From NCBI GenBank assembly GCA_037305845.1, contig CP147778.1, positions 1,824,001-1,888,000 of the forward strand: DNA of 64,000 bases. Reading direction: 5' to 3'. How positions within the stretch are numbered: the first letter of the stretch is position 1; each line of letters begins with the position of its first letter. This document shows, one piece after another, positions 29,760-53,601 of the stretch. The notes under the pieces are model-generated. The model saw only the letters and a program-made list of their open reading frames with translations. It ran no database searches and was not told where the DNA came from. This DNA comes from Candidatus Freyarchaeum deiterrae (GTDB lineage Archaea > Asgardarchaeota > Jordiarchaeia > Jordiarchaeales > Jordiarchaeaceae). Both the position numbers and the translations under genes were made by a program.

Positions 29760-29884
29760 CCCGCAGTAACTCAGACTGGCTAGAGTGCCCGGCTGTAGAG
29801 TTGCACTTGTCAGTGTGACTATTCCCAGTAGGCACTCGCACAGACACCGGGACGTCGCAAGTTCAAATCTTGCCTGCGGGACCA
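29760..29884 (+). tRNA. tRNA-Tyr(GTA) with a 47-nt intron at 37/38 (29799-29845); CCA encoded
   Basis: Acceptor CCCGCAG/CTGCGGG, anticodon GTA at 29795-29797, BHB CTGT-AG^A / ACAG-AC^A, T-loop GTTCAAATC. Confidence 0.95.
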
Positions 29885-39489: not shown

Positions 39490-40639
39490 ATGTGGAAACT
39501 AATTCGCCCTGATGCGTATAGAGTTTGGAATGATAGTATTGTTCGAGAAAGGCTTTGGAGATACTACGAGGTATTTAATAACAGACTCAACGCCAAGTTT
39601 TTAATTGCTTTGAAAGTGGGTGCAGATGTGGAACTAGATGCTGAATCGGGTAAGCTCTGGAGTGTACACGATAAAACTAGTGGCATATTCAGAGGCCTCT
39701 TGAAACGTGTTGACACAGGTGAAGTAAAATTAGATGATATGGACTCACCGAAGATTTCTTATTTAGATCTAAAGGTTGAACTTGCCCGTAGAATTCTATC
39801 CGAGTGCCATTTCTGTGAAAGGCGGTGCGGAGCTAACAGATTAGAGGACAAGAAAGGATTTTGTAAATTAGGAAGCGCGTCTTATGTATCCACGGCTTTC
39901 TTGCACACTGGTGAGGAAGCTCCCTTAGTTCCATCCGGCACAAACGCTTAATGAGCATTGCTCTAGCGGTGCATTCTTCTTCTCCAGTTGCACGTTTAAA
40001 TGTGTATTTTGTCAGAACTACGATATTTCAACAAATCCGAAAAGCGGTATTGAAACTTCAGGAGAAAGTCTTGCACGAATAAGTAGAGACTTGAGAAGAG
40101 AGGGTGCAAGAAATGTAAATTATGTGGGCGGGGAGCCAACACCCAATACTTACAACATTTTAAAAGGTATCAGGGAAACCAAAACAAACGTTGCTCAACT
40201 ATGGAATTCTAACATGTACTGCTCTAAAGAATGCATGAAACTTCTGCTAGATGTTATGGATTTTTGGCTTCCAGACTTTAAATATGGAAACGACCAGTGC
40301 GCCGAAAGATTAAGCAAAGTTTCGAATTATTGGGAAATCGTCTCCAGAAACCATAAGATGGCTTACGATGAAACCGTAGAAACCGGAGCGTCAGGTATGA
40401 TCATAAGACACCTAGTTTTACCAAGTCATATCGAATGCTGTACCAAACCGGTTCTTGAGTGGATAGCTAAAAACTGCCCAAAGGCTTTGGTTAATATCAT
40501 GGAACAATATCATCCTACACATGAAGTATCAGGAAACAAGGAGTTCATGGACATAGATAGAAAAGTCACTCATGAAGAGATGGAAGAGGCGTACAGGACC
40601 GCTGATGAATTGGGAATTATCTGGCAACCTGTATCTTAA
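39490..40639 (+). CDS. PflX-like radical SAM protein, intron-split: join(39490..39943,39975..40639), 372 aa
   Basis: Splicing gives HTGEEAPLVPSGTIFFSSCTFKCVFCQNYDIS (CxxxCxxC), in frame with the 40091 ORF (VGGEPTP, WNSNMY, PDFKYGND, IIRHLVLP). Confidence 0.92.
39944..39974 (+). other. 31-nt BHB intron in the radical SAM mRNA
   Basis: G-GCAC-AA^A-CGCT...AGCG-GTGC-AT^T-C; contains an in-frame TAA and shifts the frame. Confidence 0.9.
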
Positions 40640-40884
40640 TAGAGTTAAGTTATCTACAATTCTCAACCCACATCCCTAAATTGAGACAATACATTGAAAT
40701 CATGTTCCGTAAATATTATCTTCGGATTATATTGTCTTAATACATTTTTTAAACGTCTTAGATAAAAATAAAAAGTGTTGACTAGATAATTATAGTTTTG
40801 TTTTAAATGCTGTTTTAAATTTTGAAAGGGTAGATTTTTATCGAGTTTAGATTAAATTGATGCTTAGAGAAGAGTTGATAAATA

Positions 40885-41769
40885 TTGCTTGAAAAAACAG
40901 TAATACCCGGTCCTAGCTCACAGCTCTTGGGACTACGCCTCGCAAGGTGTTTAAAGTCAAGCGTGGTTCCTATAGAGTTTAAGACTTTCCCAGATGGAGA
41001 AAGATACATTCGGATAAAGGAAGAACCAAAGAATGGTCATGCTGTTGTAGTTCAGTCTACGATACCGCCTGATCCCAATCAATGTATAATTGAACTTTGT
41101 TTCATACTTGAAACTCTTAAGGAAATAGGTTTGGAGAAAATCACTGCAGTGATTCCCTATTTCGCTTACGCCCGCCAAGACAAAAAATTTCTACCTGGCG
41201 AGGCCGTAAGTGGAAAGATAATTTGCGATATCATACAGAACGCTGGGGCTGATGAAGTAATAACTGTGGATATTCATAGCAAAAGAATTTTAGAAAATTT
41301 CAAAATTCCCATAAGAGATGTTAGTGCAGTTCCTCTGCTTGGGGAATACTTGAACAATTTTAAACTAACTAACCCCTTAATTATTTCCCCAGATGAGGGA
41401 GCGATTGAAAGGGCTAGAACTCTTGCGGTTTTCATGGATGCTGAATACGTTACGTTTACTAAATCCCGGGATAAGCACACAGGTGAAATTGAAATATTGA
41501 TTAAAGAAATCGATGTTGCTAATCGCGATGTAGTTATAATAGATGACATTATCAGTACTGGCGGAACTATGGCGAGTGCGGTTGAAATCGCTAAGAGTCA
41601 GGGAGCTGCTCGAGTTTATGCAGCATGTACTCATGCTGTTTTGGTGGGTGATTCCAGATTTAAAATTCTTAACGCAGGGGCGAATGAGATAATCGGAACT
41701 GACACAGTTCCCAGCGATGTGAGTTTCGTATCTGCGGCTCCTATTATTGCTGAGGCGCTAAAAGAGTGA
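40885..41769 (+). CDS. prs: Ribose-phosphate pyrophosphokinase (paralog 2)
   Basis: FPDGERYIRI, PYFAYARQD and IIDDIISTGGT motifs. Confidence 0.95.
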   Translation: MLEKTVIPGPSSQLLGLRLARCLKSSVVPIEFKTFPDGERYIRIKEEPKNGHAVVVQSTIPPDPNQCIIELCFILETLKEIGLEKITAVIPYFAYARQDKKFLPGEAVSGKIICDIIQNAGADEVITVDIHSKRILENFKIPIRDVSAVPLLGEYLNNFKLTNPLIISPDEGAIERARTLAVFMDAEYVTFTKSRDKHTGEIEILIKEIDVANRDVVIIDDIISTGGTMASAVEIAKSQGAARVYAACTHAVLVGDSRFKILNAGANEIIGTDTVPSDVSFVSAAPIIAEALKE

Positions 41770-42812
41770 GACAAGACCAATTTTATATTTTGTCAGGAGA
41801 GAATCCCACTATTCCAAGCGCTGAATGCCTAGCAATTCTTGAAAGCCTCAATATACCCTACAAAGCAGAAAAATATGAACAGGTGCTAATTTTAAACTCA
41901 GAGGAGGAAAGCTGCCAACGAATAGCTGAGCGGGCTGCAATGGTTCACAATTGTTGTATTTTACTAACTAAAAGTGAAGCAAACATTGACCAGATAATGG
42001 GGTCTGTTCGAGAAATAGATTTTCAAAAACACATTTCTAACGATGATACCTTCGCCGTGAGAATAAAGCACATAAGTAACTATTCACAGGAATTAAGTTC
42101 AACTCTCCTTGAAAAAGAAATTGGAAACATAATCCATAAAAGTGTAGGAGCAAAAGCGAATCTCAGAAACCCCGATAAATTACTTTATGGGGTCCTAACA
42201 GAGAATGTTTTCATATTTGGAAAGAACGTTCGAAGATCCGAAAGGAAAACACTGGGTTTAAGAAAAGCCAAGTTTAGACCCTTTTTTATTCCCAGTTCTA
42301 TGAACCCCCCTCTTGCTAGAGCAATGGTTAATCTGTCTAGAGCTCGCCCCAAAGGTATTTTTTACGATCCATTTTGTGGAGCTGGAGGACTTCTAATCGA
42401 AGCCGGACTTATGGGATGTAAACTCATAGGTTCAGACATCGATATAAAAATGGTTTTAGGAACGGAAAAGAACCTCAAACATTTCAACTTAGAAGATTGG
42501 AATATACTTCAATCAGATGCCAAAAACTTGACTATAAACAAAGCTAATAGTATAGCGACAGATCCACCTTACGGAGGAGCTGCCTCCACTAAGGGTATCC
42601 GCCGCGAAAAACTAATTGCGGGTTTCATAGAAGAAATAGCCGGCATATCTAGTTCAGTTGGATACATATGTATGGGTGCGCCCTCCACAATAGACTTGGA
42701 AGAACTTGTTAAAGAAGCAGGTTTACAGACAGTAGAAAAACATTTAGTACGAGCACACAAGAGTTTAACCCGCCAAATTATAGTATTAAGAAAGCCAACT
42801 TCTGACAGCTGA
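41766..42812 (+). CDS. THUMP-domain tRNA (guanine-10 N2) methyltransferase (Trm11/TrmG10 family)
   Basis: RPFF.PSSM...ARAMVNL, DPFCGAGG, TDPPYG and HKSLTR motifs. Confidence 0.9.
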   Translation: MRQDQFYILSGENPTIPSAECLAILESLNIPYKAEKYEQVLILNSEEESCQRIAERAAMVHNCCILLTKSEANIDQIMGSVREIDFQKHISNDDTFAVRIKHISNYSQELSSTLLEKEIGNIIHKSVGAKANLRNPDKLLYGVLTENVFIFGKNVRRSERKTLGLRKAKFRPFFIPSSMNPPLARAMVNLSRARPKGIFYDPFCGAGGLLIEAGLMGCKLIGSDIDIKMVLGTEKNLKHFNLEDWNILQSDAKNLTINKANSIATDPPYGGAASTKGIRREKLIAGFIEEIAGISSSVGYICMGAPSTIDLEELVKEAGLQTVEKHLVRAHKSLTRQIIVLRKPTSDS

Positions 42813-42876
42813 AGACAAATATTTAAACAAAAAGACATTTTTTCCTACAAATGAAATAAACTTCTCGTATAGGAAT

Positions 42877-43791
42877 GTGAAAGAATTGCTGAGAGTCATT
42901 ATCCTGGGAACCTCAGGGGGAATTCCTACCGTTGAAAGAAATCTCCCAGCGATAGCTGTAAAGATAAGCAAGGAAATCATTCTGTTTGATTGTGCTGAGG
43001 GAACACAGAGACAGATGGAAAAGGCAAAGCTGAGTGTGGGCAGGATTAATAAAATTTTTGTTACACATCTTCATGGAGACCACATAATGGGAATTCCTGG
43101 AATACTGCAAACACTTTCACTTCAAAACAGAAAAACGCCTCTTCATATTTTCGGTCCGGAAGGTACTGGGGCTTTTATTAAAGCTATAAAAACTACCGTA
43201 AATTTTACTCTCACGTTTGACGTTTATATCAAAGAGATCTCTGAAGGAATAATATTTGAAGGGAGTGATTACTACATCAATTGTGTTAGAACCGAGCACA
43301 CCGATAACTCCTTTGCCTTCGCTTTCATTGAAAAAGATAGACCCGGGAAATTTTACCCAGAAAAGGCTAGCACTCTTCAGATACCAATGGGGCCGCTATG
43401 GAGAAAATTACAATACTGGCAAGCAGTCACACTACCCGACGGAAGAACAATAGAACCCGGTGAAGTGGCGGATCCTCCAAGACCAGGAAGAAAAATTGTG
43501 TATACAGGAGACACCGCTCCGTGTGATTCTGTTGTACAAATAAGCAAAGGCTCCACTCTCTTAATACATGAGAGTACTTTCGGCGATGACTTGGAAGAAA
43601 AGGCTGTGGAAACAAAGCATTCCACGGCAGCACAAGCTGCGAAGGTGGCTAAAGAGGCTGGCGTCGAAAAACTGGTTTTAACACATATAAGTTCAAGATA
43701 CCCAAACCCGAATGAATTGTATGAACAAGCCAAAAAAATTTTTGAAAACACTAAAGTTGCAAAGGATCTGATGGAGATAGTTTTTAATTAG
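42877..43791 (+). CDS. rnz: Ribonuclease Z
   Basis: LGTSGGIPT, DCAEGTQRQ, THLHGDH, YTGDT, HESTF and LTHISSRY motifs. Confidence 0.96.
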   Translation: MKELLRVIILGTSGGIPTVERNLPAIAVKISKEIILFDCAEGTQRQMEKAKLSVGRINKIFVTHLHGDHIMGIPGILQTLSLQNRKTPLHIFGPEGTGAFIKAIKTTVNFTLTFDVYIKEISEGIIFEGSDYYINCVRTEHTDNSFAFAFIEKDRPGKFYPEKASTLQIPMGPLWRKLQYWQAVTLPDGRTIEPGEVADPPRPGRKIVYTGDTAPCDSVVQISKGSTLLIHESTFGDDLEEKAVETKHSTAAQAAKVAKEAGVEKLVLTHISSRYPNPNELYEQAKKIFENTKVAKDLMEIVFN

Positions 43792-43898
43792 CGATACAGA
43801 AAAATATTATGAAAAATTTTGTTTATCAGCGATTTTAATAATACCTGCTGTCAGAAGTATCTTCTTAGTTTTATGCGGCTCACTAGGTCTTCTTCCTT

Positions 43899-44330
43899 TT
43901 AGCTGTCTATGGGAGGTTCTCGCTCTAGCGGTCTTCCCTCTACTGTTTTTGGGGAGAGCCAGTCAACTAATTCTTCTATGTTGCTGCTTCTGATACTTAT
44001 TTTTATAGAGCCCATCGGGGATTCTGCTTCTGGGTGGCTGAAGTGAATTTTACCCATGAAGGCGGCCTGCTTATGAAGGTAAAAAGTTACAGTGTCCCCG
44101 ATTACGCCTCTTCTTATGATTTTTCTTGCGGATTCAACTATGAGTTGATCTCTTAGGCGCTGGTATATTTTCGAAACCCCCTCCAGTCCTTGAGCTTTGC
44201 CGTGAAGAATATTTTGTCCATCTTTTTCTGAAAGTGAGTAGTCTATATCCACGATTGCTTTTAGGGCTTTTTCTACCTTCTCTCTACTCTCGGTGGGGTA
44301 TACGGGGGCTTCGATTTCTAGTTCTATCAT
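43899..44330 (-). CDS. UPF0201/DUF54 putative RNA-binding protein
   Basis: VYPTES.EKV..A and LHKQAAF.G motifs. Confidence 0.85.
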   Translation of the reverse strand: MIELEIEAPVYPTESREKVEKALKAIVDIDYSLSEKDGQNILHGKAQGLEGVSKIYQRLRDQLIVESARKIIRRGVIGDTVTFYLHKQAAFMGKIHFSHPEAESPMGSIKISIRSSNIEELVDWLSPKTVEGRPLEREPPIDS

Positions 44331-44875
44331 TTTATTATCTTCCCCAGAATTGTTCGCATTTTTTCAATTAATTCATCCTCACATCCTTCGTTTACAATTA
44401 GGTAATCCGCTAGGGCCATTGCTGATCTGATTCCAAAATTTGTCTCTCTAGCGTCTCTTTCTTGAAAAGTTTTGATATCCAGTGAATCATCAGAGCGTTC
44501 ACGTTCGCATAGACGTTTGAAGCGTGTTTCGGGTGATGCCTGAATAGCAACTAAAGTGAAATCAGGATAATGCTTTTTGAATAATTCTATCTCCTCGAGG
44601 CTCCTGATCCCTTCAACCAAGACAATACGAGATTTTTCTTTTTCGATTTTGGGTAAGGTCCTATTTGCCACAGCTTGCGATCCTTCCTCTTCGCGTAAGC
44701 CCTTTGATACCTTGCCCAAATTTTCTGGTGTTTCCTCTAAACCTCTTAATTTTACTTCCTCCCGAACTACGTCCCCCATCGATACTACTGGTATACCTCT
44801 ATCTTTTGCTGCATTAACTGCCAGTGATTTGCCGGAGCCGGGCATGCCGACAAACGCTATGATTTTCTTCTTCAA
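44327..44875 (-). CDS. UPF0200 dephospho-CoA-kinase-like P-loop protein
   Basis: VGMPGSGKS, SMGDVVREE, EGIRS and RSDD motifs. Confidence 0.88.
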   Translation of the reverse strand: MKKKIIAFVGMPGSGKSLAVNAAKDRGIPVVSMGDVVREEVKLRGLEETPENLGKVSKGLREEEGSQAVANRTLPKIEKEKSRIVLVEGIRSLEEIELFKKHYPDFTLVAIQASPETRFKRLCERERSDDSLDIKTFQERDARETNFGIRSAMALADYLIVNEGCEDELIEKMRTILGKIIK

Positions 44876-44959
44876 AACCTACACCCATTAGTCCGCAGAA
44901 AATAAATTTTTGGCAAGTTTTGGAGATCAAAAATAATTTGGATTGTTTATGTTTCTGTT

Positions 44960-46081
44960 TTAGGTGAACATTTTTGGTTTTTCTTTTGATTGTTTCTCGT
45001 TGAGTAGCTTAAGCGTTATCTCTATTATTTCTTGTGTTACACTGCCCTTATCTTGCAGAATTGCTTTGTGGAGAGCTGCTTTTAGAAGTTTTTCTTTAAG
45101 GTCTCTACCGGAGAAGCCTTCTGTGTTCATAACTATTTTTTTAATATCGGCTTTTACTGGTAATGGCATTTTCGATATGTAGAGTTTGAGGATTTGTTCC
45201 CGTTCTTCGGTACTAGGCAGTTTGAATTCGATCTCCTCTTCAAATCTGCTTTTTACAGCCTTATCTAAGGCGGTGGGGTTATTTGTGGCTCCAATGCATA
45301 CTACACCTAGGTTAGCGCTTAGTCCGTCCAATTCCCCTAGGAGTGCGTTGACTATCTCTGATACGTCACCTCTAATATTCTGAAAGCTACGGTCCAGTCC
45401 TATAGCATCGATTTCATCTAGGTATATAATGCTAGGCGTGTTGTCTGAGGCTATTTTGAAAATTTGGTGCACTCTTCTAGAGGCGTCTCCCACATTAGCT
45501 CCGATTAAATCAGTGGATTTAATCAAATAAAACGGTGAATTTGTTTCATTGGCTAGAGCCTGAGCCAGCATGGTTTTCCCCGTGCCCGGGGGACCATAGA
45601 ATAGAATGTTTTTTGGCGCCCATTCTCCGAAAGCCTCTGGGTTTTCTAAATACTTCTTGATTATTAGACACTTGTTTTTCGCTTCATTCTGTCCTATAAC
45701 ATCTGGGAAATGAACTTTCAGCCTTTTCTCCTCTGTTAATGGCTTCCTTTTCAGGATGAAACGGGTGGAAAGGTTTATTCTTCCCTGTTTTGGCTGCGCA
45801 TCAGTTACTTTAAAAGCAAAATCAGGGAAAACCAGTTGGTCGAACAGGTAGTCTCCTTTCTTAACATAAATTCCCGCCCATTGTTCTCGGGCGTAGGCTT
45901 GAAACAGTTCAATATCATCTGTTAGTAAGGCGATGGGGGAATCTTCTCCAGCGAGGCGAAAAGGATAACCTGATGGCTGGAGCTCCAAAACTGAAAGGGA
46001 TTGAATGCGGCTTTTCTTTTTTGCATGCTCCTCTCGTAAGGAGGTAGGCAGATGTATAATTTTCTCACTATTTTCTCTCAA
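44960..46081 (-). CDS. Archaeal AAA+ ATPase (COG1223-type)
   Basis: YAREQW.G, WAPKNILFYGPPGTGKT, LDEIDAI and RGDVSEIVNALL motifs. Confidence 0.9.
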   Translation of the reverse strand: MRENSEKIIHLPTSLREEHAKKKSRIQSLSVLELQPSGYPFRLAGEDSPIALLTDDIELFQAYAREQWAGIYVKKGDYLFDQLVFPDFAFKVTDAQPKQGRINLSTRFILKRKPLTEEKRLKVHFPDVIGQNEAKNKCLIIKKYLENPEAFGEWAPKNILFYGPPGTGKTMLAQALANETNSPFYLIKSTDLIGANVGDASRRVHQIFKIASDNTPSIIYLDEIDAIGLDRSFQNIRGDVSEIVNALLGELDGLSANLGVVCIGATNNPTALDKAVKSRFEEEIEFKLPSTEEREQILKLYISKMPLPVKADIKKIVMNTEGFSGRDLKEKLLKAALHKAILQDKGSVTQEIIEITLKLLNEKQSKEKPKMFT

Positions 46082-46140
46082 AAATCTTTCACCCTACCGC
46101 TTGTGACATCTTTATAACCGTTTCAGAGTTCCTTTTAGAA

Positions 46141-47451
46141 TTATACCTCATTGAATTGCATAATTTTTAGATTTACGGGTTTCTTTGTAATGTTTTCCTG
46201 TCGCACACCTAAAATGTATTCCGCACCTTTTTCTTGGGATATGTCCACTAACCTCTGAGTTATTATGCCGTCAAGAATAATGGCTTTCACCGAGTTCATT
46301 TCTTTCAGACTCTCTGCCAGTGAAGATACTTCTATTTCTTTGATTAACTCGAAGTTCTCCCCCAAAAGTACAGCTTTATTAGAAGAGGGAATACCTGACA
46401 AATGGCTCAAAATTTGCTCAGGAAGTTTAGGTTTCGGAGGGGCTTCCACCTTTTTATATCTCTTTACCTCTTTTTCTCTTTCTTTTCCCTTTTCTTTTTC
46501 CTTCTCTTTTTCTTTTTCTCTTTCTTTTCCCTTTTCTTTTTCCTTCTCTTTTTCTTTTTCTCTTTCTTTTCCCTTTTCTTTTTCCTTCTCTTTTTCTCTT
46601 TCCCTTTCCTTCTTTTTAGGTTCTTCTGATTCTTCTTGTTCTATAGGCAGTTTATTTCTTAATGCTTTAACCACTTCTTTTTGGCTGAGCTCTTCGACTT
46701 CTCTGCCTGGAGGGGCACGAGCTATGTAAGCTATGTCCGCTATTTGTTGGAGTTCTTTTAGAATCAAGTCTCCTCCCCTATCTCCATCTAGAAATGCTGT
46801 AATTGATTTTTTCTTACTGAGCTCAGTTACAGTCTTTGGTACACTCGTACCTTCAACTGCTACCACGTTCTTATAACCACATCTCAAAAGATTAAGAACA
46901 TCAGCTCTTCCCTCTACAATTATTATGTCATCAGAGGCATCAATACTCGGTCCAGCAGGCAGCTCTTCAGGACCGTATTTCTCGATTTCAGCGACTCGAA
47001 CAGCGTCCATAACCTCATCAGTGATCTGTTGGCTTTCAGGTGACACGTCTTCGGACCATTTTCGAATAATATCCGCCGCTCTTTCTACAATCTTCTTCCT
47101 TTTAACCTCACGAACATCTTCGATTATCTCTAGAGTTGCATGAGCTGTACAGGGTCCGACTCTATCCACGGTTTCCAGCGCAGCAGCTAACATCGCTGTC
47201 TCCACTTTATCCAAACTTGAGGGAATTATCACCGTTCCAGTTGATTTACCCGCTTTTGATTCTATGGTCACTCTTATTCTGCCTATCCGACCCGTTCTCT
47301 GAAGCTCACGTAGATCAAGCTCAGCTCCCAATAAACCTTCAGTCTGTCCAAAAACAGCTCCAACCACATCTGGTTTTTCAACCACACCGTCTACATCTAC
47401 TTTAGCTTTTATAATATATTTTGTCGTGCTAAATTCATTCTTATTAACCAT
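46141..47451 (-). CDS. dnaG: Archaeal DnaG (TOPRIM; exosome-associated primase-like protein)
   Basis: [28 protein letters not shown] and DGDRGG motifs. Confidence 0.96.
46469..46594. repeat. Three exact 42-bp tandem repeats encoding the Lys/Glu linker of DnaG
   Basis: TCTTTTTCTCTTTCTTTTCCCTTTTCTTTTTCCTTCTCTTTT at 46469, 46511 and 46553. Confidence 0.92.
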
Positions 47452-47626
47452 GTAAGCGTCACTTCCATTAAGTAAGTTAAGAAATGAAATGTGAAATGAA
47501 TGTAAGATTCAATTAATAATCCTGAATTTCAAAGCTCCTCAAATACCAATATGCATACACATACTGTTAACATTAACGATACTTTCGGGATAATTATGCT
47601 TTTCTCTTTTGAACTACGAAAAGGGT

Positions 47627-48040
47627 TTACCAGTCGATACTAACGTTTTTCCATGATTGGTTTTGGAGATTAAGATATGAAGAAGCTAACCCTTCAATAT
47701 CACAGGTGATTTTCGAGACTAAATTTTGGAATCTTCTTCTGAAACTCCGCGTTAAATCAACCTTTCGGCAATCTAAGTAACGAGAGAGACGCAAAGCCAA
47801 TACTCGTCCTTCACGGTCAAAGTCTGTTAAAATCAAGAAGTTTTCAAACTGCGCCAGCTCTTCTGCAACTTTTAAAAGATTTTTTCCAGACAGCCTAATA
47901 ATCTGCCCGCTAACTCCTAATGTTCGCAAACTTCTCTCATCTTTGAGACCCTCTACGACAATGGGGATACCGCTATCAGAGAATATCTTCAGCATGGAAA
48001 TTAACTGATCCAATTCGTCAAAGAAACTATTAATAAACAT
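47627..48040 (-). CDS. Small TOPRIM-domain protein
   Basis: IVVEGLKDERSL and ILTDFDREG motifs; ATG at 48040 preferred over the longer ORF start. Confidence 0.85.
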   Translation of the reverse strand: MFINSFFDELDQLISMLKIFSDSGIPIVVEGLKDERSLRTLGVSGQIIRLSGKNLLKVAEELAQFENFLILTDFDREGRVLALRLSRYLDCRKVDLTRSFRRRFQNLVSKITCDIEGLASSYLNLQNQSWKNVSIDW

Positions 48041-48165
48041 ACTCAACCATCCACGTGAACAAGGAAAAACTAATAATGGTAAACTCTCTAAGCACCAGAT
48101 ATAAGTGGAACAAAATAAATTTTTCTTATTTTTAAAGCAATCGGTACCATGTATAACAGAGATTA

Positions 48166-49296
48166 TCACCGTGTTACTATTGCCTTTTTTAAGGCTTCAA
48201 GAAGGTCGTGTGCTTCATTGTTTTCTTCAAAATGCCTCCTAACATTTTCCAATAGATTAATGAGCGCCTCCGCAGTGGCTTGCTTCAAATCCATGGGATG
48301 AAGATTACCACCAGCATAAGCTGATTTCAATTCGTCAAAACTCGTAAAGTCCACAGGCCCTCCGAATTTCTCCTTACGTTCCACATGAAGCTTAGAACCA
48401 TCTCTCGAAAGAAGGAGAAGCCTATTTATCTCGATTATCGGATTAAACTCCAACTGTTTCGGTGGGCAAAAAGCCGCTCCAATCTTCGCCCTTATATCCT
48501 CCGGCGTATCATGGATAAAAACAGCGGTCTGAGGCTTAGATTTCGACATCTTAGCCTCCATTAAAGCATCCTCATCCTCCTCCTCTCCCCCCTTTTTAAC
48601 ATCCATTCGTGATAAGCCCTGCAAACCAATCAGAAGAGGTGTATGAATAGCCACAGGCTTCCAATCCAAACCCAACTTGGGAGCCAACTCCCTAGCAAGT
48701 ACATGAGCCCTCCTCTGATCAGTTCCCCCCAAACACAACTTAAAACCAGAATACAAAATATCAGCAACCTGAATACAAGGATAAAGCGTTTTAGAATAAT
48801 CAGACTCCGCCTCATCCACCTTACGGCCCATAATACTCATAGCCCTCTTAACACGAGCAAGAGTAATATTCTTAGCAACATTAATCACCGTCCCCCAATA
48901 ATCCAAATCATCCATAAGATCCTCTGCTCTCTCAAACTGAACCCTCCCAGTATCTATACCCAGCGACTCCAAACAGTGCTCAATGTACCTCGCACACATG
49001 TGAATAGTATCCATGTCTCCACCAAACTTGTCATTAATCTTAGCATGCCAAGTTGCCTCGAGAACATGCACATCAGCATCAGCCAGAACCAAATCCTGAA
49101 GCTTCCAAGCCCAAACCACCCAACCTATATGAAATATTCTGGAACCATTAGGACAACTAAAGGCTTATCCAGAAGGCTCAACACCAATATAGGCTTTAGG
49201 ATGGCTTTCAACCTCAAACAAACTCTGCAAATCCTCAACCGTAACAACCTCATCCAAGCCACGCGAAACCATCTGAACCTTTTCCTCAGTATCCAT
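48166..49296 (-). CDS. tyrS: Tyrosine-tRNA ligase, intron-split: complement(join(48166..49136,49167..49296)), 366 aa
   Basis: GGAGG precedes ATG 49296. Splicing gives AYIGVEPSGLFHIGW (HIGH-type motif). YPCIQVADI, GGTDQRRAH and KMSKS lie downstream. Confidence 0.95.
49137..49166 (-). other. 30-nt BHB intron in tyrS mRNA
   Basis: T-CTGG-AT^A-AGCC...GGTT-CCAG-AA^T-A; the unspliced RNA reads an in-frame TAA just after the 5' junction. Confidence 0.88.
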
Positions 49297-49563
49297 CAGT
49301 AATTCCTCCAAATCAATATTTAATATAACCAAAACGCAAACATCATCAACAACAACGCACAATCAAATATCTGCAAAAAATAATAATAAAACCGTAATTA
49401 AAACTTTCCCAAAGTAAGTACAAACATCGAAAAATAGAAACCCAAAGTTAAACCCTCCACAAATATTCCAAAACAACGCATTTTTTTTCAATTCAATTAT
49501 AATTCAAAATTTCGTGGTGTTCAAATACCATTTTTTAAAGAAAATAGAATGAGATGATATAAA

Positions 49564-49905
49564 TTGGATCCATACTGGTTTATGTACGACCCCCTCACCC
49601 AAAGCCTGCTCAATATCATCTTCGGAATAGTCCTAATAGTCGGAATAGGTCTACTCGTCATGAACATAGTAAAACTGGCAACCTCTCACCAACGCATGGG
49701 ACCCACCATAGGTCTGATTCTAAGCTTACTCATCATCGGACTATCAGCCTCATGGCAATCCGTCCTACCCATAATCGCACAAACCATGGGAGGAGTGGTA
49801 CAATACCTCTCAATCTACCTCTACACACTCATCTACCAATGGATAGCACAACACACAACCACAACAACCGCCACAGCACTCCTACTACTACCACTACTAC
49901 TATAA
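49564..49905 (+). CDS. Small multi-pass membrane protein
   Basis: 113-aa ORF with 3-4 hydrophobic segments. Confidence 0.65.
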   Translation: MDPYWFMYDPLTQSLLNIIFGIVLIVGIGLLVMNIVKLATSHQRMGPTIGLILSLLIIGLSASWQSVLPIIAQTMGGVVQYLSIYLYTLIYQWIAQHTTTTTATALLLLPLLL

Positions 49906-49996
49906 TCAAAAACCAACGCAAAGCTAGCGATGGAAAATAACCGGTTCTCTATCCTAATAAAATAAAAAAGCGTTAAATTCATGAATATCCCAAAAG

Positions 49997-50064
49997 CCTA
50001 AAAAACACAAACAGAGCAAAGCAAAAAAACCACCAACAAACAGTAAATAAAAATAGTAAAATCA
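49997..50064. repeat. 68-bp direct repeat, left copy
   Basis: 63/68 identical to 51884-51951 in an ungapped alignment. Confidence 0.85.
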
Positions 50065-50439
50065 AATAATGCAACGAAAAACCCACACCATCCTCAAATA
50101 CACACCTCATTCTTTATCCCGCTCTTCCACAGAGAAAAAACCAAACAAAAGAGTATAAACCCCAGCTTGCATAATCCCCCAATTCACACAAGCTCTCCTT
50201 ACCCCCAACAAAAAAGAATCCGATAAAACAAAAAGAGAAAAGCCAATAACTAATAATTCAAACTTCCCATCCCTGTCACTATTATCGAACCCATCAACCA
50301 CCACAGAGAAATAAAAGAGACAAAAAACAATATATCAACCCGTTATACTTCTCCACATTCCCTCCCATCAAGCAAAACAAGACATAAAAAAATTTATAAG
50401 ACGCCTCATCGCCCTAAACAAAAGAGAGGCGGAAAAAGG

Positions 50440-51816
50440 ATGAAACTCCCAAAAGAAAATACAAACAATAAAAAGTCGAAAGCAGGGACACCACCCGCAC
50501 CACCGACATCACCCGCGGCAGGGACACCACCCGCACCACCGACACCCCTCGAAGGAAATCTAACCTTCGAAGCAAAGACACCCCCCGCAGCAACGCCAAC
50601 CCCCGAAGCAAAATCAATAATGGACGGTTATTCCGAAGAAGATAAAAAGTTAATAGAATTAATAATAGAAGTATATTCCCAAAATTTTATAGAAAAATTT
50701 CCTAAAAGAAAGAAGGAGGAGGAGGAGAGGGAGAAGAAGAAGTTAACGGAGGAGGAGAAGGAGGAGGCGAAGGGGAAGATCGAAACACTATTACTTATAT
50801 TGAGAGAGGAGGAGGAAGAGCAGGAGAAGAAGCAGAAGGAAAAGGAGGAGGAGAGGGAGAAAAAGAAGTTAACGAAGAAGCAGAAGGAGGAGGAGAAGCA
50901 GAAGGAGAAGGAGAAGGAGGAGGAAATGAAATCTCCACTGCGTGGACTTGCTTTGCTCTTTTTAGACTACGAAAAAGTCGAAAAGAAATATTTGCCCAAA
51001 CAAGAAAAAATAGAAGAAATAACGGGTAAAGGGGGACAAGAGGGGAAAGATCTCTATGAGTATATAAAAAATGAAATTTATGGAATCACAATTCATAAAC
51101 TAATATTAAAAATTTATGATCAGCGTCTCGAGAGAGTAACTGAAAGAAAGGAAAGAATCAATAAGAAATTGGACGAAATGGAAGACAAGAGTTACGGTTG
51201 GGTTGCTAAAAATTCCAAGAGATTATTTTGGATCGGTGTAGCTATTGTTTTTTCATCTATACTTATACCCTTAGGAGTTTGGATTTTATCCTCTTGGACA
51301 TTTTGGCAATTACTTAGTACTATTCCAGTATACGCACTAATTGCAACATCCACATCAACACCAGCAATATACACAACATTACCTGCAATAATCACATCAT
51401 TACCCTGGCAACAATTAAATAACACATCCCTAATCTCAGGAGGAATAGGCGGAACAGTAGGCCTAAGCACTATAATTACAACCTTGATTAAAGGAGCATT
51501 CCAAGAAATAAAGAGCGCCTCATTAGACAGAGTCCAAGTTACACTACTCCAAGATGCGTATCGTGACAAAATCAGGAAGATAACAATACAACTAGAACGA
51601 GATCTATACGATATAGTTGAAGAGAATCCGGCAAAGAAGAAAACGGAAGAGGAGAAAAACAATCAATGGAAGTATTTCTTTGATGTGGAAAAAAAATTTT
51701 ATCAAGATGAAGCTCAAATATATGAAGAATTAGCAAACGATCTACAAAAATACGTCGAAGGCATTATAAAAACCGAAAAGAGTAACAACAAAGATAGTAA
51801 CAACCAAAAAGAGTAG
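50440..51816 (+). CDS. Hypothetical membrane protein with Pro-rich repeats and Lys/Glu coiled-coil tracts
   Basis: AGTPPAPPT twice, KE-rich repeats, central hydrophobic segments; GAGGCGG upstream. Confidence 0.75.
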   Translation: MKLPKENTNNKKSKAGTPPAPPTSPAAGTPPAPPTPLEGNLTFEAKTPPAATPTPEAKSIMDGYSEEDKKLIELIIEVYSQNFIEKFPKRKKEEEEREKKKLTEEEKEEAKGKIETLLLILREEEEEQEKKQKEKEEEREKKKLTKKQKEEEKQKEKEKEEEMKSPLRGLALLFLDYEKVEKKYLPKQEKIEEITGKGGQEGKDLYEYIKNEIYGITIHKLILKIYDQRLERVTERKERINKKLDEMEDKSYGWVAKNSKRLFWIGVAIVFSSILIPLGVWILSSWTFWQLLSTIPVYALIATSTSTPAIYTTLPAIITSLPWQQLNNTSLISGGIGGTVGLSTIITTLIKGAFQEIKSASLDRVQVTLLQDAYRDKIRKITIQLERDLYDIVEENPAKKKTEEEKNNQWKYFFDVEKKFYQDEAQIYEELANDLQKYVEGIIKTEKSNNKDSNNQKE

Positions 51817-51883
51817 TAACAACGCAAATAATAGCAAAAAAGAGAACAGACAGAGAAACAAAATACACGCTCAACAACCAAAC

Positions 51884-51951
51884 CCTAAAAAACACAAACA
51901 GAACAAAGCAAAAACACCAACAACAAACAATAAATAAAAACAGTAAAATCA
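51884..51951. repeat. 68-bp direct repeat, right copy (just downstream of the ahcY stop)
   Basis: 63/68 identical to 49997-50064. Confidence 0.85.
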
Positions 51952-51984
51952 TGAAACACTGAAACCAAAGAAAAAGGGTTAGGC

Positions 51985-53601
51985 TCAGGTACCCTCAGCC
52001 CAACCATGAATATACGCATCCTGCTCTGGAGTCAGAACATCCAACTTAAGACCCATAGCCGCGCACTTTAATTGAGCCACAGTATTATCAATCGCTTCGG
52101 GAATATCCAAAACAACACTGCCCATCTTAGACAAAGACTCCCTGTTCTTGACAATATACTCTACCGCCAAAGCTTGGTCTGAGAAGCTCATGTCCATAAC
52201 CTTACCAGCCACATGCATAGTAAAAACTCCCAAAGGTGTTGGTTTATTGTGGGATGACATTTTTTGATTTGACTCAGTATCCCTCTGCTTAACACTTCTA
52301 CATAATGGTGTTAAGGGAGAACTAGAAATACTGGTCCACAATCCGCCACCACAGCAAGTTCACACATCTAGAAGTTTTAATTAAACATGTGGTCACTGGG
52401 GTGCCCCTCTGCACAAGCTAGATTCACAAGTCTGCCTTGTCCGAGTAGGTAAATTTTTCTTCCGTCTTTCATTGTGTATTCGTCGACTAGTGGTCTCAAC
52501 TCTCGTTTGCTGACACTGAGTTTCTCTAGGTCCGGTATGTTTATTTCGACATTGAAGTGCCCAGTGTTACAAATTGTCGCCCCGTTTTTGAACTTCTTCA
52601 TATGCTCTGCGTTAACCACGTTTTTACAGCCCGTAGCTGTGACGAAGATGTCGCCTACCTCAGCGGCTTCTATCATGGGCATCACATCGAATCCCTCAAG
52701 TGCAGCCGTTAGCGCTCTGTGTGGGCTAATCTCGCAGATGATAACTCTTCTGGCGCCTAGTCCCTTGGCTCTTATCGCTACGCCTCTACCGCAATGACCA
52801 AAACCAGCGACTACAAAAACTTTACCTGCTATAAGATCCGCTGTTGCTCTTAGTATGCCGTCGATGGTGCTTTGTCCGGTTCCCCACAGGTTATCAAATT
52901 TGGGCGCAAACACTTCAGCGTTTACGTTTCCCATTTTGTGGGGGTGTCGTTAGTGGCTAAAATCGGATAGAGTAATACATTATCTTTGGCCATAGCCCTC
53001 AACCGAACAATTCCGGCCATATGTTTAATAAAAACTCTCAGGGGCATTAATGATTTAACATATGGATTCCGGTCGTGGTTTCTTCGGCTCCGGCCCATAC
53101 GGTGTCTGCCCAGTCTTTTTTTTCTCCTAGGATTTTTTTGACTATTTTTATTTCTTCTCCTGTTTCTCCTCTTTTCAGTTTGATGAGTGTTGATACCAGG
53201 TCGGCGCCGTCGTCCAGAGTAATGTTGGGTTTCGCTTTGATTACGTTGGCTATTGCTCTGTAGTAGCCTTCGTGGTCCATTCCTTTCCAGCCGTAGGTGG
53301 ATATGCCTTCTTTTACCAGAGCTGCGACGACGTGGTCCTGTGTTGATAGTGGATTAGAAGCGCATAGGTAGACCTCAGCGCCGCCTGCTTTCAGGGTTTT
53401 CGCGAGCACCGCGGTCTCCTTGGTTAAGTGGAGGCATGCTCCCACTTTCACGTTTTTGAGTGGTTTCTCTTTGGTGAATCTTTGTTTTACTTGCATGAGT
53501 ACCGGCATGTGTGCTTCTGCCCATTCTATTGTGCTCTGTCCGCTTGGCGCCAATTTCATGTCTTTGACTTCGTATTTTTCTCCTTTTTCTGTTTGTGACA
53601 T
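51985..53601 (-). CDS. ahcY: Adenosylhomocysteinase, four exons: complement(join(51985..52202,52394..52898,52928..53010,53067..53601)), 446 aa
   Basis: Spliced product reads [10 protein letters not shown]...SNPLSTQD...DDGAD...[13 protein letters not shown]...[18 protein letters not shown]...[21 protein letters not shown]. Exon lengths 535+83+505+218 = 1341 nt. Confidence 0.95.
52203..52393 (-). other. 191-nt BHB intron 3 of ahcY
   Basis: ACC-CCAG-TG^A-CCACATG...CATGTGG-CTGG-TA^A-GGT; splicing restores H-P-S-E-V-M-D. Confidence 0.93.
52899..52927 (-). other. 29-nt BHB intron 2 of ahcY
   Basis: AA-TGGG-AA^A-CGTAAACGC...GTGTTTGCG-CCCA-AA^T-TT; splicing restores K-W-E-F-D-N. Confidence 0.93.
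53011..53066 (-). other. 56-nt BHB intron 1 of ahcY
   Basis: A-CCGG-AA^T-CCATATGTT...AACATATGG-CCGG-AA^T-T; splicing restores T-T-T-G-I-V-R-L. Confidence 0.92.

Follow-up and report, generated by a model that had tools for sequence, protein, structure and literature searches.

Probable tRNA-type introns in protein-coding genes of Candidatus Freyarchaeum deiterrae and the likely transposon origin of two of them

In this study, we analyzed a window of 64,000 nucleotides from the Asgard archaeon Candidatus Freyarchaeum deiterrae (GCA_037305845.1, contig CP147778.1, positions 1,824,001 to 1,888,000), in which three protein-coding genes are interrupted by five short inserts; all positions given without further specification refer to this window. 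On the forward strand, a PflA/PflX-like radical SAM gene (39490–40639) comprises two exons around a 31-nt insert (39944–39974; helix GCAC/GTGC, bulges AA^A and AT^T) and would encode 372 amino acids (aa) after splicing; the gene of a relative without this insert gave weak PFLA/NrdG matches. The two other genes lie on the reverse strand. The single-copy tyrS (48166–49296, two exons, 366 aa spliced) carries a 30-nt insert with an in-frame TAA in the region of the HIGH motif (49137–49166; helix CTGG/CCAG). The single-copy ahcY (51985–53601, 446 aa spliced) falls into four exons (53067–53601, 52928–53010, 52394–52898 and 51985–52202), among them an internal exon of 83 nt, which are separated by intron 1 (53011–53066, 56 nt), intron 2 (52899–52927, 29 nt, helix TGGG/CCCA; 23–34 nt in relatives) and intron 3 (52203–52393, 191 nt, helix CCAG/CTGG). 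A previous sequence-only reading of this region had proposed the same five inserts, and their coordinates were confirmed exactly.

The folding pattern claimed for the inserts was found in all five cases: a central helix with 4/4 Watson–Crick pairs, a 3-nt bulge on either strand and, next to the bulge, 4–9 contiguous pairs that form an inner stem. No other register up to 6 nt away offered both the helix and the inner stem. Because the outer exon–exon helix measures only 1–3 bp, the inserts are bulge-helix-bulge (BHB) motifs of the relaxed class, a form reportedly cut by splicing endonucleases (EndA) that bear an additional loop (PMC12397907). Pairs were counted directly, as minimum-energy folding did not return the BHB for most of the inserts. 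When an insert was shuffled and its exons were retained, a strict BHB arose within 3 nt of the junction in 2–5 out of 10,000 trials per insert. Introns of group I or group II were ruled out, since the inserts are too short for a ribozyme core and show no Rfam match at the gathering score; GT-AG ends are likewise absent, and the host is an archaeon.

The window also provides a positive control for the cut rule, i.e. cleavage after the second base of each bulge. A tRNA-Tyr(GUA) gene on the forward strand is interrupted by a canonical BHB intron of 47 nt (29799–29845); after removal of this intron by the rule, ARAGORN called a tRNA-Tyr(GUA) at 29760–29881, for which there had been no call before. 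The inner stem of the tRNA intron is irregular, and a nested intron is possible. Applied to the three protein-coding genes, the rule repairs the reading frame, yielding the open reading frames (ORFs) of 372, 366 and 446 aa, and the spliced AhcY aligns without gaps to an intronless Jordarchaeales AhcY (72% identity). The unspliced forms all run into a stop codon, which also agrees with the sequence-only reading: the radical SAM protein would end at 153 aa, TyrS at 43 aa and AhcY, with any one intron retained, at 184, 207 or 379 aa. In ahcY, all three junctions can be slid by 1–7 nt without changing the mRNA, so the exact cuts are fixed by the BHB geometry only.

Comparison with relatives showed that three of the five inserts (radical SAM, tyrS and ahcY intron 2) recur in relatives or other species. 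The radical SAM intron is kept in 10/10 order-level genomes that contain the gene, with lengths of 27, 28 or 31 nt, and its central helix is paired in 100% across these relatives versus 31–55% for slid controls. The tyrS intron measures 30 or 31 nt in every close relative examined, and close TyrS relatives in the protein collection are all fragments of 214–336 aa. Among relatives, one and the same site carries inserts of phase 0, +1 and +2, and the in-frame versions (four alleles) contain a stop codon in every case when translated. The ratio of nonsynonymous to synonymous substitutions (dN/dS) of the spliced genes against congeners ranges from 0.03 to 0.15 and does not exceed 0.17 for individual ahcY exons. 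The inserts thus vary in length irrespective of the reading frame, and the protein is conserved on both sides, as splicing predicts. A bypass by ribosomal hopping, by frameshifting or by the use of split proteins made from separate fragments would agree with the gene callers, which predict such fragments; we regard it as very improbable, because no single recoding event fits three phases at the same site, the breaks fall within catalytic motifs and the geometry is that of the tRNA intron in the same window.

Transposon insertions usually inactivate genes, and a close relative indeed harbors a decayed 3' ahcY fragment beside a radical SAM gene and a transposase (L273:6420–6686), so that pseudogenes broken by hairpin insertions have to be considered. 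The genome, a single contig of 3,576,204 bp, contains no second copy of tyrS or ahcY. dN/dS is low in every exon, including the one downstream of the old intron 3, the inserts are conserved across the order, and ordinary frameshifts were absent from the census against an Odin-like genome described below, which leaves decay a slim chance. A second tRNA-synt_1b match in the genome was rejected as TyrS, as it is only 21–28% identical to TyrS references and is TrpRS-like by our reading. Since the genome was derived from a metagenome, assembly artefacts were also considered; over the ahcY region, five independent assemblies agree at 100% identity and three of these extend across all introns, and three of the introns recur in other species, making such an error a negligible explanation.

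The genome encodes the components required for this type of splicing. Two EndA subunits are present, a catalytic alpha and a beta subunit, and the alpha subunit is closest to that of Aeropyrum pernix (3p1z, E 8e-43) and retains the Crenarchaea-specific loop with the K-P-K motif and Tyr, His and Lys residues; loops of this type have been associated with relaxed substrates (PMC12397907). The ligase RtcB is encoded as well, and rtcB is itself split by a 29-nt insert forming a relaxed BHB. Based on the geometry and on known enzymology, the mRNA would fold into the relaxed BHB, an (alpha-beta)2 EndA would cut behind the second base in both bulges, and the exons would be joined by RtcB.

Single gene copies, purifying selection, phase-varying inserts, independent assemblies and the genes for EndA and RtcB support the earlier claim that this organism routinely splices mRNAs, including that of tyrS. 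We therefore consider it highly probable, as far as sequence comparison can tell, that all five inserts are introns of pre-mRNAs and are excised by the machinery that splices tRNAs. Some observations weigh against this: the outer helices are short, covariation in the inner stem of the radical SAM intron is present but weak, at a level also reached by 13–42 of 500 shuffles, and no full-length protein matching a spliced form was found in the protein collection searched, a weak negative as its entries are mostly derived from DNA.

In order to estimate the extent of such introns in the genome, split ORFs were aligned with intronless orthologues and scanned for BHB motifs. The census comprised 803 orthologs from the Odin-like genome, and the references used cover 83% of that genome and 1.18 Mb of a further one (G006). 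Against the Odin-like orthologs, we found 14 ORF-breaking junctions of 12–80 nt. A BHB was located at a best-aligned cut in eight of them, compared with 0–1 for each of six decoy geometries; three more, in rtcB, ppsA and rps26e (the latter read by eye), are relaxed BHBs, and the remaining three were discarded as poor alignments or rRNA. Breaks of 1–11 nt were all located in rRNA and none in a protein gene, and the sole ordinary frameshift of the G006 census is a 1-nt shift where a radical SAM gene contains a run of T (G000:C1 near 2485068). Overall, the genome contains at least 18 BHB introns in at least 16 genes, some of which were named by motif recognition; these numbers are lower bounds, because coverage of the gene set by the references is incomplete. 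Candidate 564396 was rejected because of its poor alignment. When the genome was scanned ab initio with a codon model, true lengths did not stand out from shifted ones (521 vs 524–551), and listing every BHB with 7-nt repeats across the genome returned hundreds of chance matches.

None of the five inserts has a further copy elsewhere in this genome. However, intron 3 of ahcY matched intergenic sequences in a congener, which revealed a family of non-coding MITEs (miniature inverted-repeat transposable elements) of 170–190 nt (~185) with inverted ends. Among 31 candidate end pairs, 19, from four congeners, are flanked by a 7-bp duplication (14 perfect), whereas duplications of 5, 6 and 8 bp occur once each and a reversed-pattern control gave 0; no free copy lies inside a long ORF. 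Tandem copies occur at L095, L058, L068 and L100, in one case with the same 7-bp repeat present three times. A metagenome scan further identified an insertion sequence (IS) of 1644–1650 bp, from the same genus and with the ends of the MITE (L250, L251, L253), whose start is identical on a congener contig. It encodes a two-frame, Mutator-like transposase of the DDE type matching MULE, Transposase_mut, ISL3 and IS66, all below the Pfam cut-off, with relatives in 5/5 congeners; the IS was placed in none of the named families (IS256, ISL3, IS66 or others of the Mutator type). The two frames overlap at a G4-A7 run (L251:1234–1279), likely a site of -1 programmed frameshifting. Judging from the shared ends, the MITE was probably moved by this IS.

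Comparison with these elements gave the make-up of introns 1 and 3. Intron 1 consists of an internally deleted MITE of 49 nt (53017–53065), whose ends match the terminal repeat of the IS at 17/22 and 20/22 positions, and one copy of the perfect 7-bp duplication CCGGAAT (53010–53016 and 53066–53072, 7/7). Intron 3 consists of a full-length MITE of 184 nt (52209–52392; ends 19/22 and 17/22), which is 71–76% identical to free intergenic copies in relatives, and 7 further nucleotides. Both intron lengths thus equal element plus 7 (49 + 7 and 184 + 7). Within the 3.58 Mb genome, only two 22-mers agree with the IS end in at least 18/22 positions, and both are ends of these ahcY introns.

We propose that such an insertion would carry its own splice signal. 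A non-autonomous MITE of ~185 nt, presumably mobilised by the IS, inserts with a 7-bp duplication. Where the target starts, on the sense strand, with four self-complementary bases, its two copies would pair as the central helix, and the last three bases of each copy would form the bulges (7 = 4 + 3); the inverted ends of the element would stack as the inner stem. Splicing would then remove the element together with one copy of the duplicate and restore the original mRNA. Later, deletion of the middle and compensatory changes in the helix would leave a hairpin intron of 30–60 nt; these stages are seen across strains, and their order is our suggestion.

Three insertion events in ahcY fit this scheme. 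The first is intron 1, at CCGG, which is also present in L276 in a more decayed form. The second is found in L279, where a full MITE intron lies 15 nt upstream of the intron-3 site, with the repeat GCGCAGA/GCGTAGA (6/7); at this upstream site, the L276 intron has shrunk to 34 nt with a GTGC/GCAC helix. The third is intron 3 with its CCAG/CTGG helix, for which we had predicted a CTAG palindrome as ancestor beforehand, and the empty intron-3 site of L276 matched it, reading CTAG-TGA. The creation of a splice signal by duplication and insertion is direct for intron 1 and the L279 intron and reconstructed for intron 3. A palindromic tetramer is present in 3/3 coding insertions, one by reconstruction, and in 3/38 orientations of the 19 free copies, which is near the 5% background.

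An unlikely alternative is that ahcY introns 1 and 3 are indeed spliced and did not arise by target duplication, the MITE having inserted into an earlier BHB intron, taken its place or moved by 15 nt through a local hop or reverse splicing. Such a history would fit the GCA-G that this genome reads at the upstream site, like two intron-bearing alleles and unlike the intronless relatives, as well as the match of the intron-3 5' end with that of L276 over 18 nt. It is difficult to reconcile with the finding that the element abuts bulge and helix without leftover intron bases, and with the repeats of 7/7 at intron 1 and 6/7 in L279; introns 1 and 3 are also missing from five congeners and five other members of the order, and a local hop at the DNA level would employ the same duplication mechanism anyway.

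Given splicing, we thus consider it very probable that ahcY introns 1 and 3 are of transposon origin. Several points speak against this origin or limit it. The flanks of intron 3 agree at only 4/7 positions, so its duplication had to be reconstructed, and an Atabey-like genome (L033, G021:C1 near 488300) carries a 34-nt BHB intron of unrelated sequence at the intron-3 position. In this genome, we found neither a free MITE copy nor a transposase homolog; the 7-bp figure comes from the MITE copies rather than from the IS itself. The introns of the radical SAM gene and tyrS and intron 2 of ahcY show no MITE trace. The combined explanation, i.e. EndA/RtcB splicing together with the birth of these two introns from transposons, appears likely to us.

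More generally, the Freyarchaeaceae probably host an archaeal counterpart of the eukaryotic Introners, a MITE/IS system whose 7-bp duplication and inverted ends already make up an EndA substrate wherever the target is palindromic, and which has created mRNA introns repeatedly. That such elements, with eroded middles, stand behind a considerable fraction of the mRNA and tRNA introns in Asgard archaea is a tentative generalisation. To the two statements together we give slightly less than an even chance; the sole basis of the generalisation is a weak excess of self-pairing exon tetramers (6/17 vs 2.1 expected, p ~0.01, post hoc).

Further inserts were noted in passing. In L277 (3550–3580) and L278 (GCA_029259465.1, ERZ27248349), the same ahcY motif contains another intron site of 31 nt (helix GGCC/GGCT), with a palindromic exon tetramer and ends unmatched to the MITE. 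The rps26e insert of this genome (G000:C1 near 2278916) lies between CGCGATG and CGCGATA, which form a repeat of 6/7 on a palindrome, and has no recognisable MITE ends. In the Odin-like genome, BHB inserts interrupt a gatA-like, a gcvPA-like and a radical SAM gene (G011:C1 near 738041, 827300 and 852817); the stem of the gatA-like insert starts with CCATAT and ends with ATATGG, a resemblance to MITE ends that may be due to chance. Within the window, the segment separating ahcY from tyrS (49560–51820) holds two ORFs, one of 113 aa and one of 458 aa that includes tracts rich in proline and in lysine/glutamate, and the spacing of these genes is ~2 kb shorter in congeners. A dnaG-like gene at 46141–47451 shows a tandem KEKE-type repeat expansion.

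These results suggest that tRNA-type splicing is needed by at least 15 genes besides that of an essential synthetase present in one copy, and Asgard proteomes and metabolic reconstructions would therefore miss or truncate real genes. They also suggest how, in an organism related to eukaryotes, transposon insertions can be rendered harmless by a splicing enzyme of broad specificity. With respect to pre-spliceosomal exon–intron structure, on which the sequence-only reading had seen a bearing, the resemblance to spliceosomal intron gain holds as an analogy and not as shared descent, because the chemistry differs and the intron positions are lineage-restricted.

In the published work found, a BHB intron within an archaeal coding sequence is documented only for cbf5 of Desulfurococcales and Sulfolobales (PMC2738675), a case credited to Watanabe 2002 and Yoshinari 2006 in PMC7714728 and PMC12397907. 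Both systems share a short BHB intron in coding sequence and an (alpha-beta)2 EndA whose loop is of crenarchaeal type. However, cbf5 is one gene in which splicing has been shown, whereas the introns described here affect at least 16 genes with splicing predicted, and they include a gene with three introns, the gene of an essential synthetase and introns whose transposon origin can be traced. In Haloferax, EndA processes the HVO_1309 mRNA at a BHB as well, though in the 5' untranslated region, where no reading frame is at stake (PMC7714728). Studies of Asgard tRNA introns (PMC11291895; bioRxiv 10.64898/2026.10.13.758758) describe the same lineages, the same motif and similarly repeated recent gains, and cover tRNA genes only, not mRNA. 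The latter preprint, from 2026, examined 18 large elements from the literature without finding a general route by which the introns arrive, and mentions neither MITEs nor mRNA; for this open question, the MITE offers a specific route with full, shrunken and compensated stages across strains. Neither BHB introns in the mRNAs of multiple genes nor a MITE origin was reported in the papers found, among which most subscription journals are not covered. What is new here is that a ~185-nt MITE with 7-bp target duplications makes up two ahcY introns, intron 1 as a shrunken copy and intron 3 as a full one.

Among eukaryotic systems, the nonconventional introns of euglenids resemble the ahcY introns in that their inverted ends pair in the RNA, with duplication-like repeats at the borders and a suspected MITE origin (PMC11282704); the excision enzyme there is unknown and no BHB has been described. 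The closest parallel in mechanism is given by the Introners, MITEs with terminal inverted repeats in which, according to PMC11282704, PMC12130899 and bioRxiv 2022.06.06.494994, the target duplication completes the splice signal. In both cases, insertion plus duplication yields a new intron. Introners depend on the spliceosome and on sequence signals, whereas here a protein endonuclease of an archaeon would recognise an RNA geometry, and Introners form many similar introns per genome, compared with two copies in this genome and three events in one gene without any burst. The ahcY MITE introns thus work like Introners, yet fall outside that class by its spliceosome and copy-number criteria.

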